A stretch of DNA of 5,018 bases from positions 1 through 5,018 of the IMG/VR virus record IMGVR_UViG_2563366829_000009, one strand, 5' to 3'. The notes beneath the pieces are model-generated. The model saw only the letters and a list, made by a program, of their open reading frames with translations, was not told the origin of the DNA and did no database searches. Origin of the DNA: a virus (Duplodnaviria > Heunggongvirae > Uroviricota > Caudoviricetes). The translations under genes and the position numbers were made by a program. This document shows positions 1 through 5,018 of this stretch, piece after piece (position 1 is the stretch's first letter; every line of letters starts with the position of its first letter).

Positions 1-202
1 CGATAAAGCGTGACTACATCAGTGTCATGCCCAAACCAGACGGGTTAACGGCAGCAAAGAACCTTGCAGAGGCGTTCGAGCATTATAACGAATGGCATCC
101 GCATAGTGCACTGGGTTATCGCTCGCCACGGGAATATCTACGGCAGCAAGCCAGTAATGGGTTAAGTGATAACAGGTGTCTGGAAATATAGGGGCAAATC
201 CA
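1..202 (+). mobile_element. IS2-like insertion sequence, right end (partial; element continues beyond window start)
   Basis: Frame-3 translation of 3-191 gives a DDE-transposase C-terminus (...[36 protein letters not shown]) that I recognise as IS2 OrfB. The sequence after the stop (GGGGCAAATCCA, ending at 202) matches my memory of the IS2 right terminus. The minus-strand reading frame of the neighbouring gene changes character exactly at 202/203. The target-site duplication cannot be checked because the left end is outside the window. Confidence 0.78.
3..191 (+). CDS. insD: IS2-family transposase OrfB (InsD-like), C-terminal 62 codons, 5'-partial
   Basis: Open frame from the window edge to TAG at 189-191. 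The translation [62 protein letters not shown] is a typical IS3-family/IS2 transposase C-terminal tail. Confidence 0.75.
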
Positions 203-433
203 GCCGATAAGAATTGATGCTGCTGGTTTGTAAAAGAGAAGGCCGCAAAGAAAGCTGAGCATCGACAGGAGCACCCGGCGACGGATGGGGTACTCTACTG
301 CAGAGGTAACAAAAATTACCACCCCAGCCAAAGCCCCTAAAGCAACCTCCGGAGGGACACCTGCAATAACTGCAGCAAGAGAACCAAAACTAAGCAACTG
401 ATTTAATTGCTCATTTGTTACTTGAGCAGACAT
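203..433 (-). pseudogene. Small hydrophobic membrane protein gene (holin-like or lysogenic-conversion-like), N-terminal 77 codons native, truncated and fused into IS2
   Basis: ATG at 433-431 is preceded by AGGAGA (rc of 438-443) at 5-nt spacing. Residues 1-77 (MSAQVTNEQLNQLLSFGSLAAVIAGVPPEVALGALAGVVIFVTSAVEYPIRRRVLLSMLSFLCGLLFYKPAASILIG) contain two or three hydrophobic helices. Codon 78 onward (WICPYISRH..., down to 116) lies inside the IS2 terminus, so the 105-aa ORF in the track is a fusion artefact. The original C-terminus is lost or displaced. Confidence 0.55.
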
Positions 434-714
434 ACTTTCTCCTGTTTACTATCTATAAGCCAGTCAATTATTGATGACTAAACCCGCATAGCAAACCATA
501 TATGAATCATTATTGTTCCATATCATATATCTCAATAAAAGTACTAATGATTTTACAGAACGAGCCAGCAGAGTGGGGGCAGTTGTACAGGAACCATAGA
601 CTTAATTTTGTATTTAATAATGCTATGGTGTAATAAACCTGAACATGTATTTAAAATACGTACTGATTCATGATAGAATTCAAAGATAACTTTTCACCAA
701 CTCCGTTTTTGATA

Positions 715-741
715 CCCGCAATATTTTGCGGGCTTTTTTTT
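715..741 (+). terminator. Intrinsic terminator-like hairpin (CCCGCAA-TATT-TTGCGGG) followed by a T8 run, oriented for plus-strand transcription; may act bidirectionally
   Basis: 7-bp GC-rich stem 715-721/726-732 with a 4-nt loop, then T734-T741. The T-run overlaps the tailspike stop codon (rc of 740-742 = TAA). On the minus strand the hairpin is followed only by UAUCAAAAAC, so termination of the tailspike transcript here would be weak. Confidence 0.55.
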
Positions 742-3700
742 AACGTTCTTCCAGAGACTGAACCCGCTCTTTTATCTTATCCATTTCTCTGCGCTGCCAT
801 GCTGCCTCGATATAGAATAAGAGATCAGGTCTGACCCCCCATCTAGATCCTGCTGGCGTTATTTCAACGCGCTCAATGATGTCTTCTATTACCATCACTG
901 GATTATCATCATCATCAACAATGATGCTCCCGTCATTATCAGTCAGCGGCATTTCCCTTTGGCCAGTAATGACGTCATCATATACTGCGGGATAATCGTC
1001 ATAGCAAAGAAAGGCATAGCGGCATGTTGTGCTTTCTTCTTCCATGAGTCCGTGAGAAATAAGAACATCACGAAGTTGCTGCGCGATTACACCATGATGT
1101 ATCCTCGCCCCTTCTTCCCCCTTTATAGCGACAGCGTTCAGCCATTTATAAGCGATATACCTGACGTCACCCCAGGCATCCAGCAATGCTTCGTCAGGAG
1201 AGACCGGCTCTGTCTTTAATGTTCCGTCACTGGTAACCACAGGATTGGAGCCAAGATAAACTGTCGAGAACCTGTTTCCCGGACCACCAAGAGCATTTAC
1301 ATTATCAAGATAAGGTTTAACATCTCCGTTCTCAAAAAGATGTTCGAGTGCGTTATATACCGCGCGACGTGGAGTACTGCTTCCGGAACCATGCAACGTT
1401 ATCATTGCACCATCTGCTGAAGACGTTGTTTCACCGCCGCTAACGATTAATCTCTGAGCGGTAACATCATCAGACGGTACTTTCTTCGCAATAATGGCGT
1501 AATTACCCTCAAGTTTGACTTCCGCGCGAACTTGTCCTGATGTACCTGCATGGACAGTCAGTGACTGGACGGCAACATCATCTGTGAAATCAACGGGTAC
1601 AGGAACCGTCCTCACGCCTGACGTCGACATAAAAGTAGGAAGCGTTCTGTTAGGAGTGGCTCCGTAGACAAAATCCCTTGAAACAAATTCTTCCTGTTTA
1701 ATTTTCACCCTGAAACAATACAAATCAGCCGGGTGACCATCGTGAACATAAGGATATTTTCTGTTGTTATCCCCTATGCTCCATGGGTTTAGAAAGTCTT
1801 CCCCACCGAAAATGTAGTACAGCCAGTTGTCTTTGATACAAACTGAACCAACACCAACCGCAGAGTTAACTATTCCGCCCTGATAAATCTGATCAGTAAC
1901 ATTAACCCACTCTACATTATCCAGACTCCACTCATTGACGTTAACTCTGGTCATAAATGTTCTTGGATAATTTCCTGCATAACGGTTATCAGGTTCTCCT
2001 CCTTCCCACTCACCAAATGCGCGCTCACTGCCAAAAATAATCAGCTCATCGCCAACTTTGGCAAAAGGAAGGTTTGAGTGATGAACATTATTTGGGAAGC
2101 GAAGAGAATTCCATGATGTACCTAAATCAGAGCTTCTGTGCAATGAACTACCGGGTTGAGTACTTAATGTCCCCCTGGTCGTCAGATACAGAATGCCATC
2201 ATAATATTTTACACATGGCTCAGATGCATTCGCCTCATATTCTACAGGTATGCGTCTGCGAACAAAGCTACCAGGAGAACCGAAAGCATCAGAGAAATAG
2301 AGTATCCCAAGCTCGCGTGGACCAATATCACCATTATGGTAGCCAACAGCAAAACTGTTATCGCTAATCGTCGCAAAACTGTGAATCTCAGTAACAGGAG
2401 TGCTTCCGTCAACAAAAGAAGGAATAGTTCCAAGACTGGTTTTTCTCCATGGTGACGAGTGAAATGATGTGCCAAAACTCCAGTATCTACCCTCGTTATT
2501 CTGATCCACATCCTGGGTATTTTGCGTCGTAACTGTAAAGGTATTTTTATCAATAACAGTAGTCACCGTCATATTCCCGGTAACACCTGTAACACCAGAG
2601 TTTGAGAAGTTGACAAAATCACCAGCAAATAATCCGTGATCAGTAATGCGAATATAAGCGACTTGCTGATTTGCTGCTTTCGTTATACCACCATAAACGC
2701 GAAGGCTGCGACTCATTGGGCGATCCCACAACTCTGCAACCTGCAGTTTATTTCCTCTCACGGTCCGCGTCTCAATTACAGCAAAAAGGCGATTTCTGAC
2801 AACCCCCATACTCATGCAGTGATAGTTAACTGTGGGATAGTTTTCATGTAAATCTGTAAGCCATTCCGGCGTTGTCCAGGTCTTCCCGTCATCTCCTGAG
2901 CGAACCCATGCAACATGGAGGTTATTTACACCATGGCGGTCTCCAGCCATAAAAGGCGCATAGATGACATTGTCATATACAAACGTTTTATCCTGCGTCC
3001 AGGCGTTGTACCACGGTGTATCTGTAATTTTAAATAACTCTCCCTGGATAAAATCTTCAGAAGCATAAAAAAGAGGCTGGCCCGGTATTCTCTCAAATAA
3101 AAAACGAGCATTTTTAAATCGACTGACATCCGGAAGAGTTGATACTTTAAAAGTAAGCCCTAATCCGTCAATTTTATAACCTGGAGATGAGGCTTCAAGG
3201 CACGCGCTTATTGCAGTGGAATCGTCATTTATACCATCACCAACAGCTCCAAAATCTTTGGGGCTAATAGCATCACGCATTTTATCCTGGAACGTTCGGT
3301 ACACAGCCCCAGAACCATACTGAATAAACCAACCAAAACCACCAACAACTCCGGCGATTGCAGCATCGACATAATTACGCATTGAGCGATTATTTACAGC
3401 GTCCTGCTCAAATGATGGATCTGCAAGGTTAGAAATTTTGTTTTGCTTTGCATCGTAATATTTTGCAAGCAAAGATGGTTTCATCAATGCACGTCTGAAC
3501 CACCCAAAACATTGCTGGATCAGCATCGTCAGGTAGTCAAAGGCATCTTCATGCACTTCGGGGAAAAATTTTCCCTGATTGCGAAGGTCTGTGTCCTGCA
3601 CTACATCAAGCACACGATCTATCGTAATTCGCCATCCAGTAGCAAGCGGAGACGGAAGAACCACAGAACCGCCACTATAAGTGCCCGCCCCAGTTACCGT

Positions 3701-3859
3701 ATAACCGGTATCCAGGACCAATTCTGTTACGTTCCCGTTCAGGTCAGACACCTGAACAACCAGGTCTGATTTTCTGAAAATTCGAAAAGTATACGGAAAC
3801 GATGTCGTAACGCCGTTACCGGTGTATTCGTTGTGGTCAACTTCGGTTGAGACCGTCAT
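740..3859 (-). CDS. Phage tailspike protein, endosialidase-like (endo-N-acetylneuraminidase family candidate) with conserved N-terminal virion-anchor domain and C-terminal intramolecular chaperone domain
   Basis: Intact 1039-codon ORF. ATG at 3859-3857 with GGAGA (rc of 3866-3870) 7 nt upstream. N-terminus MTVSTEVDHNEYTGNGVTTSFPYTFRIF is a conserved tailspike particle-binding module, recalled as epsilon15-like. Two Asp-box (S-x-D-x-G-x-T/S-W) motifs: SGDDGKTW (aa 321-328, nt 2876-2899) and SSDLGTSW (aa 576-583, nt 2111-2134). The blocks VNYHCMSMGV, ITKAANQ and KYYDGILYLTTRGT resemble endosialidases of K1 coliphages as I recall them. C-terminal 162 aa carry the Ser-Lys dyad spacing (S877...K882) and ARIHHGVIAQQ typical of self-cleaving chaperone domains. 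Confidence 0.8.
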   Translation of the reverse strand: MTVSTEVDHNEYTGNGVTTSFPYTFRIFRKSDLVVQVSDLNGNVTELVLDTGYTVTGAGTYSGGSVVLPSPLATGWRITIDRVLDVVQDTDLRNQGKFFPEVHEDAFDYLTMLIQQCFGWFRRALMKPSLLAKYYDAKQNKISNLADPSFEQDAVNNRSMRNYVDAAIAGVVGGFGWFIQYGSGAVYRTFQDKMRDAISPKDFGAVGDGINDDSTAISACLEASSPGYKIDGLGLTFKVSTLPDVSRFKNARFLFERIPGQPLFYASEDFIQGELFKITDTPWYNAWTQDKTFVYDNVIYAPFMAGDRHGVNNLHVAWVRSGDDGKTWTTPEWLTDLHENYPTVNYHCMSMGVVRNRLFAVIETRTVRGNKLQVAELWDRPMSRSLRVYGGITKAANQQVAYIRITDHGLFAGDFVNFSNSGVTGVTGNMTVTTVIDKNTFTVTTQNTQDVDQNNEGRYWSFGTSFHSSPWRKTSLGTIPSFVDGSTPVTEIHSFATISDNSFAVGYHNGDIGPRELGILYFSDAFGSPGSFVRRRIPVEYEANASEPCVKYYDGILYLTTRGTLSTQPGSSLHRSSDLGTSWNSLRFPNNVHHSNLPFAKVGDELIIFGSERAFGEWEGGEPDNRYAGNYPRTFMTRVNVNEWSLDNVEWVNVTDQIYQGGIVNSAVGVGSVCIKDNWLYYIFGGEDFLNPWSIGDNNRKYPYVHDGHPADLYCFRVKIKQEEFVSRDFVYGATPNRTLPTFMSTSGVRTVPVPVDFTDDVAVQSLTVHAGTSGQVRAEVKLEGNYAIIAKKVPSDDVTAQRLIVSGGETTSSADGAMITLHGSGSSTPRRAVYNALEHLFENGDVKPYLDNVNALGGPGNRFSTVYLGSNPVVTSDGTLKTEPVSPDEALLDAWGDVRYIAYKWLNAVAIKGEEGARIHHGVIAQQLRDVLISHGLMEEESTTCRYAFLCYDDYPAVYDDVITGQREMPLTDNDGSIIVDDDDNPVMVIEDIIERVEITPAGSRWGVRPDLLFYIEAAWQRREMDKIKERVQSLEER
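743..1231 (-). other. C-terminal intramolecular chaperone / autoproteolytic domain (peptidase S74-like) of the tailspike; predicted self-cleavage between Ser877 and Asp878
   Basis: Sequence ...GSNPVVTS|DGTLKTEP... with Ser877 (codon 1229-1231) and Lys882 (codon 1214-1216) five residues apart, followed by DAWGDVRYIAYKWLNAVAIKGEEGARIHHGVIAQQLRDV. This matches the established Ser/Lys dyad architecture of the C-terminal chaperone domains of endosialidases and related tail fibres. Confidence 0.65.
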
Positions 3860-4054
3860 GTTAAATCTCCAGATAGTCGCAGCACCCGTTGCGCCGCATA
3901 TCTGGTTATTCTATTACCTGAAAAACCATATATGGATAAAAAGACTATAAATACCAATAGATATTACCTTTCGGGTAATTTGCAAAACGTGCTGGATAGC
4001 AAACAAATTATTTGTTACTGTATAAACATACAGTTATTGCATGGAGAAGATAAG
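3860..4054. promoter_or_regulatory. AT-rich divergent intergenic region between the tailspike gene (minus) and the small ORF (plus); contains a palindrome and candidate promoter elements
   Basis: 195 bp between two divergent start codons, each with a good RBS. Contains palindrome ATTACC-TTTCG-GGTAAT (3963-3979) immediately followed by the self-complementary hexamer TTGCAA (3980-3985), and TATAAA at 4021-4026 preceded by TG at 4019-4020. No hexamer pair with canonical 17-bp spacing was found, so the promoter assignment is tentative. Confidence 0.4.
3963..3979. repeat. Palindrome ATTACC-N5-GGTAAT (candidate operator or small hairpin), copy A
   Basis: Perfect 6-bp arms with a 5-nt spacer. The same half-site recurs at 3914-3919, 4321-4326 (within an inverted GGTAATTGCAAA motif) and as TTTACC-N5-GGTAAA at 4343-4359. 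Confidence 0.45.
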
Positions 4055-4312
4055 ATGCAGCAGTATCACTATCCACTGGAAGACGGATTTACCGAAAGGA
4101 TTCACACGCCGGGAGGCGTCAGGTCACTGGTGGAGGGATCGCACTTGATGAAATTACTCCGGGATCTCGATAAGGATGGATTTAATGTCGATGGCCCACT
4201 TGCCGAACTGACTGCACTGATTAACTACGTCACCAGCTCACAGATGTCTATGCAGGATCTGCAAACACATCTCGACTATTGTGCCGAACAATTACGAAAA
4301 CAAACCAGATAA
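4055..4312 (+). CDS. Hypothetical small acidic protein (85 aa), function unknown
   Basis: ATG at 4055 preceded by GGAG (4043-4046) at 8-nt spacing; stop TAA at 4310-4312. The ORF track start at 3932 adds 41 low-complexity codons from the AT-rich promoter region with no RBS, so the shorter start is preferred. Product MQQYHYPLEDGFTERIHTPGGVRSLVEGSHLMKLLRDLDKDGFNVDGPLAELTALINYVTSSQMSMQDLQTHLDYCAEQLRKQTR has about 14 D/E against 8 K/R and no hydrophobic segment; I do not recognise a family. Confidence 0.5.
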   Translation: MQQYHYPLEDGFTERIHTPGGVRSLVEGSHLMKLLRDLDKDGFNVDGPLAELTALINYVTSSQMSMQDLQTHLDYCAEQLRKQTR

Positions 4313-4330
4313 GGTTTGCAATTACCAAAT

Positions 4331-4374
4331 GGAGTGCTTATATTTACCTTTGCGGTAAATTTACATCGCACTCC
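4331..4374. repeat. Nested inverted repeat: GGAGTGC (4331-4337) / GCACTCC (4368-4374) enclosing palindrome TTTACC-TTTGC-GGTAAA (4343-4359), copy C of the ATTACC/GGTAAT-type motif
   Basis: Read directly from the sequence; lies 19-60 nt downstream of the small-ORF stop codon. Confidence 0.45.
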
Positions 4375-4385
4375 TCTTGTGCCAT

Positions 4386-4437
4386 AGTAATCGGGCACTG
4401 GCAAAATCCAGTGCCGGGATTGGTCTCCCGGATTACT
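4386..4437 (+). other. Compound stem-loop / imperfect long palindrome (candidate structured RNA element or protein-binding site)
   Basis: AGTAATC (4386-4392) pairs with GATTACT (4431-4437). Inside it is a perfect 8-bp hairpin GGCACTGG-CAAAAT-CCAGTGCC (4394-4415) and a second short hairpin GGGA-TTGGTC-TCCC (4416-4429). Confidence 0.35.
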
Positions 4438-4452
4438 ACAGAGGCACATATG

Positions 4453-4471
4453 CCGCATAAGCGGTTTTTTT
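4453..4471 (+). terminator. Weak intrinsic-terminator candidate (CCGC-ATAA-GCGG followed by T7) downstream of the small ORF
   Basis: 4-bp GC stem 4453-4456/4461-4464 followed by T4465-T4471. The stem is short, so confidence is low; it may act together with the upstream compound hairpin. Confidence 0.3.
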
Positions 4472-4566
4472 ATGTGTAAAGCGCACCTATTCTATGGTGG
4501 GCTGTGTGGGGGCACCGAAAGGTGCGCCGGGTTCCTTTGTAGCCGGTAAGACCAACTCTGCACAGT

Positions 4567-4599
4567 TCACCACCATCTGATTGGTCTCAGCGGTGGTGA
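4567..4599. repeat. Inverted repeat TCACCACC-N17-GGTGGTGA upstream of the antirepressor start (candidate operator)
   Basis: 8-bp perfect arms at 4567-4574 and 4592-4599. A second overlapping inverted repeat AGACCAA (4549-4555) / TTGGTCT (4581-4587) is also present. Located 27-60 nt upstream of ATG 4626. Confidence 0.4.
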
Positions 4600-4625
4600 T
4601 TAACCTAACTACAAAGGTGATCGCT

Positions 4626-4793
4626 ATGAATACCAAACCTTCCATCTTTTCCTTTGAGTCATCCTGCCAGATCCGTATGTTCATGATTGACGGAGAACCT
4701 TGGTTTGTCACCAAAGATGTGTGCAATGCTTTGAATATTGATGTTACACAAGCGAGAAAACTTGATAAAAAAGGCTGGAACAAAAAGGGGCTG
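4626..4793 (+). pseudogene. Bro-N-domain phage antirepressor-like gene, N-terminal 56 codons only; truncated by IS3-family insertion
   Basis: ATG 4626 preceded by AAGGTG (4614-4619) at 6-nt spacing. Translation MNTKPSIFSFESSCQIRMFMIDGEPWFVTKDVCNALNIDVTQARKLDKK... fits the Bro-N / antirepressor N-terminal pattern (F-x-F...IR...DGEPWF-x-x-KDV...L). The frame runs straight into the IS terminus TGAACCGCCCC at 4794, whose first three bases supply the stop codon. Confidence 0.6.
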
Positions 4794-5018
4794 TGAACCG
4801 CCCCGGGTTTCCTGGAGAGTGTTTTATCTGTGAACTCAGGCTGCCAGATCATCGTTTCCGATGGAAGCATAATAAGCTTTTTCTGCTTCTGCCGGAGGAG
4901 TATGGCCCAGCCTTTCCAGCAATCGTCGATTGTTATACCAGTCCACCCACGTGAGTGTGGCCAGTTCCACTTCTGCACGGTTTTTCCAGCTCTTACGGTG
5001 TATTACCTCCGCTTTGTA
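4794..5018 (-). mobile_element. IS3-family insertion sequence (IS629/IS3411-like), terminal inverted repeat and 3' end of transposase; element continues beyond window end
   Basis: Terminus TGAACCGCCCCGGGTTTCCTGGAGAG at 4794 is a characteristic IS3-family end (TG...CA). The minus-strand frame 5018-4836 encodes a DDE-transposase C-terminus. The target-site duplication cannot be checked within the window. Confidence 0.75.
4836..5018 (-). CDS. IS3-family transposase OrfB, C-terminal 60 codons, 5'-partial
   Basis: Reverse-complement translation YKAEVIHRKSWKNRAEVELATLTWVDWYNNRRLLERLGHTPPAEAEKAYYASIGNDDLAA* is in frame with the window edge; stop TGA is rc of 4836-4838. It is absent from the ORF track only because it has no in-window start codon. 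Confidence 0.8.
   Translation of the reverse strand, partial: YKAEVIHRKSWKNRAEVELATLTWVDWYNNRRLLERLGHTPPAEAEKAYYASIGNDDLAA

Follow-up and report, generated by a model that had tools for sequence, protein, structure and literature searches.

A probable LexA-gated antirepressor gene beside the endosialidase tailspike of an E. coli epsilon15-like prophage

What is the role of the short open reading frame (ORF) that stands next to the tailspike gene in this phage DNA, and how is it controlled? Within the window, i.e. the whole stretch of 5,018 nucleotides analysed here, the ORF runs on the + strand from an ATG at 4055 to a TAA at 4310-4312 and encodes 85 amino acids (ORF listing). An initial annotation of the same DNA had given it this placement and length (4055-4312, + strand, 85 aa), called it an orphan and preferred for it a role in anti-defence or host takeover. 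We propose, with a high degree of confidence, that it is the LexA-gated antirepressor gene ant of an E. coli epsilon15-like prophage, coupling induction to DNA damage.

The good ribosome binding site mentioned in the initial annotation is present: GGAG at 4043-4046 lies 8 nt 5' of the ATG, at the head of a predicted Shine-Dalgarno sequence GGAGAAG (4043..4049, + strand, 5-8 nt before the ATG), and CATGGAGA is kept in 7 of the 10 phages compared. The gene is divergent from that of the tailspike, a 1039-aa gene at 740-3859 on the - strand, and its product is mildly acidic (pI 5.39, 12 D+E versus 8 K+R, net charge about -4) and hydrophilic, with no hydrophobic segment (GRAVY -0.57), also as first described. 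A longer version of 126 aa, starting at an ATG at 3932, was rejected. Its N-terminal extension would span the operator and the LexA box described below, and it is taken as non-coding because epsilon15, Tyrion and BUCT554 have an in-frame stop 6 codons 5' of the homologous ATG.

Identity and conservation of the ant product

When Ant was compared with all PDB chains (phmmer), a single match was obtained, to chain E of entry 5D50, ‘Anti-repressor protein’ (E 4.1e-47). Residues 2-84 align to residues 3-85 of this 86-residue chain with about 88% identity. Chain E is the Ant of Salmonella phages SPC32H and SPC32N (Uetakevirus; Kim and Ryu 2013, J Virol; Kim et al. 2016, PNAS), so that ~88% identity holds over 83 of the 85 residues, for proteins of 85 aa here and 86 aa there. 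SPC32H Ant has been studied experimentally, whereas the E. coli protein is known here from its sequence. Ant also falls in phrog_450 (PHROG search, E 9e-48), and residues 27-75 weakly match the C-terminal part of phrog_1760, ‘anti-repressor’. We thus assign 4055..4312 (stop included, + strand) to ant, a small antirepressor gene orthologous to that of SPC32H, on the basis of 5D50_E, phrog_450 and the selection data given below. The orphan label and the absence of any recognisable motif reported at first were both wrong, since a homologue with a solved structure exists (PDB 5D50).

The gene is widespread. Homologues were found by tblastn in 35 phage records among 50,697, and the ant-bearing phages examined are all Uetakevirus (epsilon15-like) podophages, with Escherichia, Salmonella, Enterobacter or Klebsiella hosts. 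Phage ZX5 encodes an Ant 100% identical to that of the window. Of 5426 complete genomes of E. coli, 529 carry the ant segment 3950-4320. A protein search returned 136 clusters, almost all of 85-86 aa and all from Enterobacterales; these are named ‘hypothetical’ at NCBI, and ‘Anti-repressor protein’ in some UniRef entries. In GenBank, the label ‘ant: anti-repressor protein’ is found in SPC32H and SPC32N, and ‘hypothetical protein’ in most other phage records, including phiV10, TL-2011b, epsilon15 and ZX5.

Domain models do not recognise this family. No Pfam domain was found in any of the 136 clusters, and scans of Ant itself against Pfam (E up to 1) and NCBIfam gave no significant family; a sub-threshold Pfam match to DUF724 was discarded as chance. 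Bro-N, P22_AR_N and ANT (KilAC) domains were looked for in Pfam at E up to 1, and none was found. The same holds for ribbon-helix-helix (RHH) and helix-turn-helix (HTH) domains, with no match in Pfam (E up to 1), NCBIfam or PHROG, in agreement with the initial reading of the N-terminus.

The divergent arrangement of ant and tailspike is also found in SPC32H, phiV10, TL-2011b, epsilon15, Tyrion, BUCT554, BUCT711 and Klebsiella phages; the synteny that had been suggested as a check is therefore the same in the Uetakeviruses examined. Conservation and selection were examined as well. Over 83 aligned codons, the dN/dS of ant was 0.056-0.064 (dS 1.4-2.3) against SPC32H, epsilon15, Tyrion and BUCT554, with a dS of about 1.4-1.6 for the first three, and 0.04-0.16 among other pairs; values across the genus were 0.04-0.10. 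Length and start codon are conserved across homologues. The ORF at 4055-4312 is a genuine gene under strong purifying selection. Its kind, its mechanism and a crystal structure have all been published for the SPC32H protein, an orthologue of 88% identity from a phage of this genus.

LexA box, candidate promoter and repressor operators

The key regulatory signal, overlooked in the initial annotation, is a LexA (SOS) box, TACTGTATAAACATACAGTT, at 4016..4035 on the + strand. It is the only CTGT-N8-ACAG of the window, for 0.07 expected, and 17 of its 20 positions fit the E. coli consensus TACTG(TA)5CAGTA. Its offset of -39 relative to the ant ATG is conserved in 7 of the 10 Uetakevirus loci compared; boxes at -39 with 16-18 of 20 consensus positions are found in SPC32H, TL-2011b, phiV10, epsilon15, Tyrion and BUCT554. 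In three Klebsiella phages the box at about -40 from the ATG reads ATATGTATATATATACAGTA, with the left CTG gone and the right half canonical; in these phages, repression by LexA may be less strong or otherwise changed.

Comparison of SPC32H with SPC32N bears on the function of the box. The two phages have two base differences within the 7.2 kb compared, one of which, a C to A change, falls in the homologous box and turns its right-hand CAG into AAG. This pair reportedly differs in ant expression, and is said to have led Kim and Ryu to the discovery of Ant in 2013. The base change supports a role of the box as a LexA site.

Upstream, the block TGCTGGATAG (3990-3999) is invariant in 7 phages of E. 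coli, Salmonella and Enterobacter while its flanks vary, and it lies 17 nt 5' of TACTGT. This suggests a candidate ant promoter at 3993..4021 on the + strand, with TGGATA (3993-3998) as -35, a 17-nt spacer, and TACTGT (4016-4021) as a -10 placed inside the LexA box. As a simple sigma-70 consensus scan called no promoter at this place, we infer it from the conserved block and the spacing. Transcription would then start at about 4028, and the start at about 4030 proposed initially is probably right. Given this inferred overlap between the box and the core promoter, LexA would block transcription of ant.

The initial annotation also described repeated palindromes framing the gene, and these are well above chance: TTACC-N5-GGTAA is present twice in the window, where chance would give 0.01 copies, and in 200 shuffles a count of two was never attained. 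One copy (ATTACC-TTTCG-GGTAAT, 3963..3979, no strand assigned; core TTACCTTTCGGGTAA at 3964-3978) is found in the interval that separates ant from the tailspike gene. The other (TTTACC-TTTGC-GGTAAA, 4343..4359, likewise without strand; core TTACCTTTGCGGTAA at 4344-4358) directly adjoins the -10 hexamer of a promoter-like site downstream of ant, and is also present at the matching place in phiV10, Tyrion and OXA245phi3.2. Genome-wide, ZX5 and SPC32H, each of about 39 kb, have 10 copies apiece for 0.01 expected, and no shuffle of ZX5 out of 100 attained that number. Every one of them is intergenic according to the gene tables of ZX5 and SPC32H. In SPC32H, two tandem copies lie between rep and a divergent cro-like gene and three directly downstream of rep; the remaining ones stand in front of the small terminase gene, head genes, a post-replication gene block and the tailspike. 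In the GenBank record of epsilon15, the copy between the tailspike gene and gp19 (ATTACCTTACAGGTAAT), homologous to the first one of the window, is annotated as a protein_bind site, ‘repressor’.

From these intergenic copies and the epsilon15 annotation, the framing palindromes are identified as operators of the phage repressor, neither terminators nor specific to ant. A terminator function was considered and rejected, the palindromes having AT-rich stems of 5-6 bp and no T-run, and their copies preceding transcription units genome-wide. Near the first palindrome, a sigma-70 promoter for the tailspike was sought on the minus strand by scan and by reading, and no convincing -10 was seen. Since operators lie in the immunity region and also precede terminase, head and tailspike genes, a single repressor may control a large number of transcription units directly, by analogy with C1 of P1.

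The prophage and the genes around ant

The tailspike gene (740..3859, - strand) combines an epsilon15-type N-terminal adaptor, a complete K1 endosialidase and a C-terminal chaperone domain (Pfam: End_beta_propel, 1.7e-232; End_tail_spike; Peptidase_S74). The window is E. coli chromosomal DNA. Positions 1-4794 are 100% identical to a prophage of E. coli MS 196-1 inserted between guaA and yfgI, and the closest phage is vB_EcoP_ZX5, a Uetakevirus with the same 3120-nt endosialidase tailspike gene. The element is a K1-capsule-specific Uetakevirus prophage. At least 80% of the window is covered in 71 complete E. coli genomes, among them an O2:K1:H7 APEC strain.

Immediately downstream of ant, and not separated from it by a terminator, comes a second antirepressor module resembling the immI region of P1 (4316-4796). 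It is headed by the promoter-like site mentioned above (4316-4344, + strand; TTGCAA at 4316-4321, 17 nt, TATATT at 4339-4344). Then follow, all on the + strand, an isrK / c4-a1b1 leader with a terminator (4382-4471), a C4 antisense RNA (4490-4577), and the 5' portion of a gene for a BRO-N antirepressor (4626..4796; Bro-N E 2e-05; phrogs ‘anti-repressor Ant’). In Rfam, isrK scored 74.7 bits (gathering score 50) and C4 78.6 bits (gathering score 45), while c4-a1b1, at 39.9 bits, remained below its gathering score of 46.7. The C4 loop CCTTTGTAG (4532-4540) is complementary to CTACAAAGG (4609-4617) at the ribosome binding site of the BRO-N gene, and GATTGGTCTC is present at both 4418 and 4579; this complementarity and this repeat match the scheme of a/b targets in P1 c4. 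A short CDS of ZX5 annotated ‘ash family protein’ (1779-1892) lies about where the C4 RNA maps (window ~4490-4620), and it may be a mis-annotated RNA gene.

The same parts, i.e. an operator-bearing promoter, an a1/b1 leader, a C4 RNA and an antirepressor gene, are found in the P1/P7 immI region (c4-icd-ant) and in isrK-anrP of Gifsy-1. The small Ant is a neighbour of this P1-like module and no part of the P1 system. In SPC32H, epsilon15, TL-2011b and BUCT554, a terminator hairpin directly follows ant and the c4/BRO-N module is absent from that place. As ant occurs in these four phages without the module directly downstream, its function should be independent of it.

Both ends of the window are occupied by IS3-family elements (1-202 and 4795-5018), and an ORF extends over 116-433 on the - strand. 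The left element is IS2-like (TnpB C-terminus, E 4.7e-33) and interrupts the holin gene near 203. The right one, in which a family scan detected a transposase fragment (4839-4970, - strand), cuts the BRO-N gene at about 4794; intact versions of 230-231 aa exist in MS 196-1 and ZX5. Because the holin and BRO-N antirepressor genes are interrupted, the prophage of the window is judged to be defective; ant itself and the region controlling it are undamaged. The MS 196-1 prophage has an additional IS in a structural gene. Induction of the element studied here might yield no phage, Ant then derepressing no more than a defective element, and ant could be vestigial in it.

Proposed induction circuit and competing explanations

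A 194-aa repressor, Rep (WP_000836293.1), is encoded, outside the region corresponding to the 5-kb window, in both ZX5 and the MS 196-1 prophage. ZX5 Rep (13182-13766) matches chain A of 5D50, ‘Repressor’, with an E value of 4e-42, and shares 42% identity with Rep of SPC32H (33739-34335). Between the E. coli and the Salmonella phages, Ant is thus 88% identical, Rep only 42%, and both have TTACC/GGTAA as half-sites in their operators. This unequal conservation possibly reflects a conserved docking surface or an extra partner. With Rep at 42% and Ant at 88%, a cognate interaction of the two proteins in E. coli is an assumption of the model.

The general scheme, given in a review that cites Kim and Ryu 2013 (PMC7380047), is that an antirepressor is synthesised in the SOS response once LexA has cleaved itself, and that this antirepressor blocks the lytic repressor through a protein-protein interaction. 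For the E. coli element, we observe directly that Ant is an orthologue, that the LexA box and the synteny are conserved, that ant is under purifying selection, that the operators are there, and that the nearest complete genomes encode a Rep homologue. Work on SPC32H adds, by analogy, that ant expression would be SOS-induced, that Ant would bind Rep, and that derepression would follow. In an undamaged lysogen, LexA sitting on 4016-4035 would keep ant silent. Upon DNA damage, activated RecA would promote self-cleavage of LexA, transcription of ant would start at about 4028, and the protein would be made. Ant, which forms a tetramer in SPC32H, would then bind Rep, itself presumably not cleaved by RecA, and break the DNA-binding Rep tetramer into dimers. 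Rep would leave its ATTACC-N5-GGTAAT operators all over the genome, and lytic genes would be switched on.

The resemblance to SPC32H extends to the whole locus: in both, ant is divergent from the tailspike gene and has a LexA box at -39, the same ribosome binding site and the same operator palindrome upstream, and a Rep homologue exists in the same phage type (ZX5, MS 196-1). The differences are an E. coli K1-type host with an endosialidase tailspike, a Rep of 42% identity, and the replacement of the terminator found after ant in SPC32H by the operator-guarded isrK/c4-BRO-N antirepressor module. The authors of the SPC32H work reportedly regard its Ant as structurally distinct from antirepressors of sipho- and myoviruses. 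In our family scans (Pfam, PHROG, NCBIfam), no sequence link appeared between Ant and Tum, GfoA/GfhA or AntC; the likeness to them is one of function, the same logic being served by a LexA box and a small protein. As described in PMC3121763 and PMC7380047, Tum (phage 186), GfoA/GfhA (Gifsy-1/-3) and AntC (N15) are small LexA-repressed antirepressors acting on non-cleavable repressors, and their genes lie outside the immunity region and are repressed directly by LexA.

Sequence similarity does connect Ant with larger antirepressors. Aligned over its full length, it shares 42% identity (E 8e-16) with the last ~75 residues of ZX5 ORF4, a BRO-N protein (1078-1773), and a P22_AR_N protein of 300 aa (19221-20123) from an APEC K1 prophage matches it equally well through its C-terminus (E 3e-16); no Pfam or NCBIfam model covers this shared module. 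These alignments with the C-termini of BRO-N and P22_AR_N antirepressors indicate that Ant is a free-standing form of a domain carried by larger antirepressors. The large proteins share only this C-terminal module with Ant, and they are controlled by c4 antisense RNA or by Mnt/Arc, whereas Ant is under LexA control. In ZX5, overexpression of the BRO-N protein ORF4 moved the phage toward lysis; that study covered the BRO-N antirepressor and left the Ant ORF as ‘hypothetical’ (PMC9782041).

In the phiV10/ZX5 branch, the ant terminator known from SPC32H and epsilon15 is lost and ant runs into the isrK/c4-BRO-N module guarded by a Rep operator; the C-terminal domain of the BRO-N protein is a paralogue of Ant. 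One could imagine from this a two-tier, feed-forward induction, in which SOS-made Ant acts before a BRO-N antirepressor with an Ant-like C-terminus, but we hold it to be rather unlikely. In such a circuit, Ant would titrate Rep and, together with read-through from the ant promoter, open the second promoter; the larger antirepressor, with the same Rep-binding module, would then lock the lytic decision. If this were true, the contrast between 88% identity for Ant and 42% for Rep would mean a shared docking surface, and crosstalk between heteroimmune Uetakeviruses.

How does the assignment of ant as a LexA-gated antirepressor gene stand against other explanations? The anti-defence or host-takeover role preferred in the initial annotation would make of Ant an acidic DNA mimic, such as an anti-restriction protein, expressed early from its place near the tailspike. 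Small size, mild acidity (pI 5.39, net ~-4) and the lack of a Pfam or NCBIfam family fit such a role, but DNA-mimic anti-restriction proteins of the Ocr or ArdA type are strongly acidic, with a pI of about 4, and the acidity of Ant is far below theirs. In Pfam and PHROG, antirepressor groups were the only families matched. Ant is moreover 88% identical to a protein crystallised with a phage repressor, its module forms the C-terminus of larger antirepressors, and the LexA box upstream is a signal of SOS control, not of early expression in infection. An orthologue of SPC32H Ant that is only mildly acidic is very improbably an anti-defence protein; the ‘regulators, anti-repressor controllers’ listed among the other options of that annotation included the right one. 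We give just as little credit to a Mnt/Arc-like DNA-binding protein regulating the isrK/c4-BRO-N module from the position held by mnt in P22 immI. The location of ant directly 5' of an immI-like module and next to an operator-like palindrome would be explained, but that palindrome is a repressor operator found genome-wide, SPC32H, epsilon15, TL-2011b and BUCT554 have ant with no c4/BRO-N module directly downstream, and Ant has no RHH or HTH match at E up to 1.

That the ORF is a chance one without product is the least credible proposal of all and is refuted by its conservation: its small size alone would speak for it, against a dN/dS of ~0.06 at dS >1, the conserved length and start codon, and a crystallised homologue. 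A more serious question is whether the Ant orthologue still drives induction here, or is a retained relic, either neutral or acting in trans on other repressors of Uetakevirus type. The IS3-family elements interrupting the holin and BRO-N antirepressor genes, and the further IS in a structural gene of MS 196-1, would fit a relic, and antirepressor crosstalk in trans between prophages is documented in Salmonella (PMC3121763). Against it, neither the ORF nor its ribosome binding site, LexA box or operator shows any damage, all of them being the same as in ZX5, a viable phage, and the nearest genome has an undamaged Rep gene. We regard this state as possible though on the doubtful side. It concerns the present condition of the element in its host and leaves the identity of the gene unchanged, that is, an ant orthologue.

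The value of assigning this ORF to ant is one of annotation and raises no new biological question. Its product, WP_001188252.1, is called ‘hypothetical’ in nearly all the E. coli genomes and phage records examined, and lysis-lysogeny control of ZX5 had been studied without it (PMC9782041). The identity of Ant also accounts for the palindromes around its gene. As a LexA-gated antirepressor, Ant accounts for the likely coupling of phiV10/ZX5-type E. coli prophages to the SOS response, including those of K1 strains and of the O157:H7 host of phiV10.
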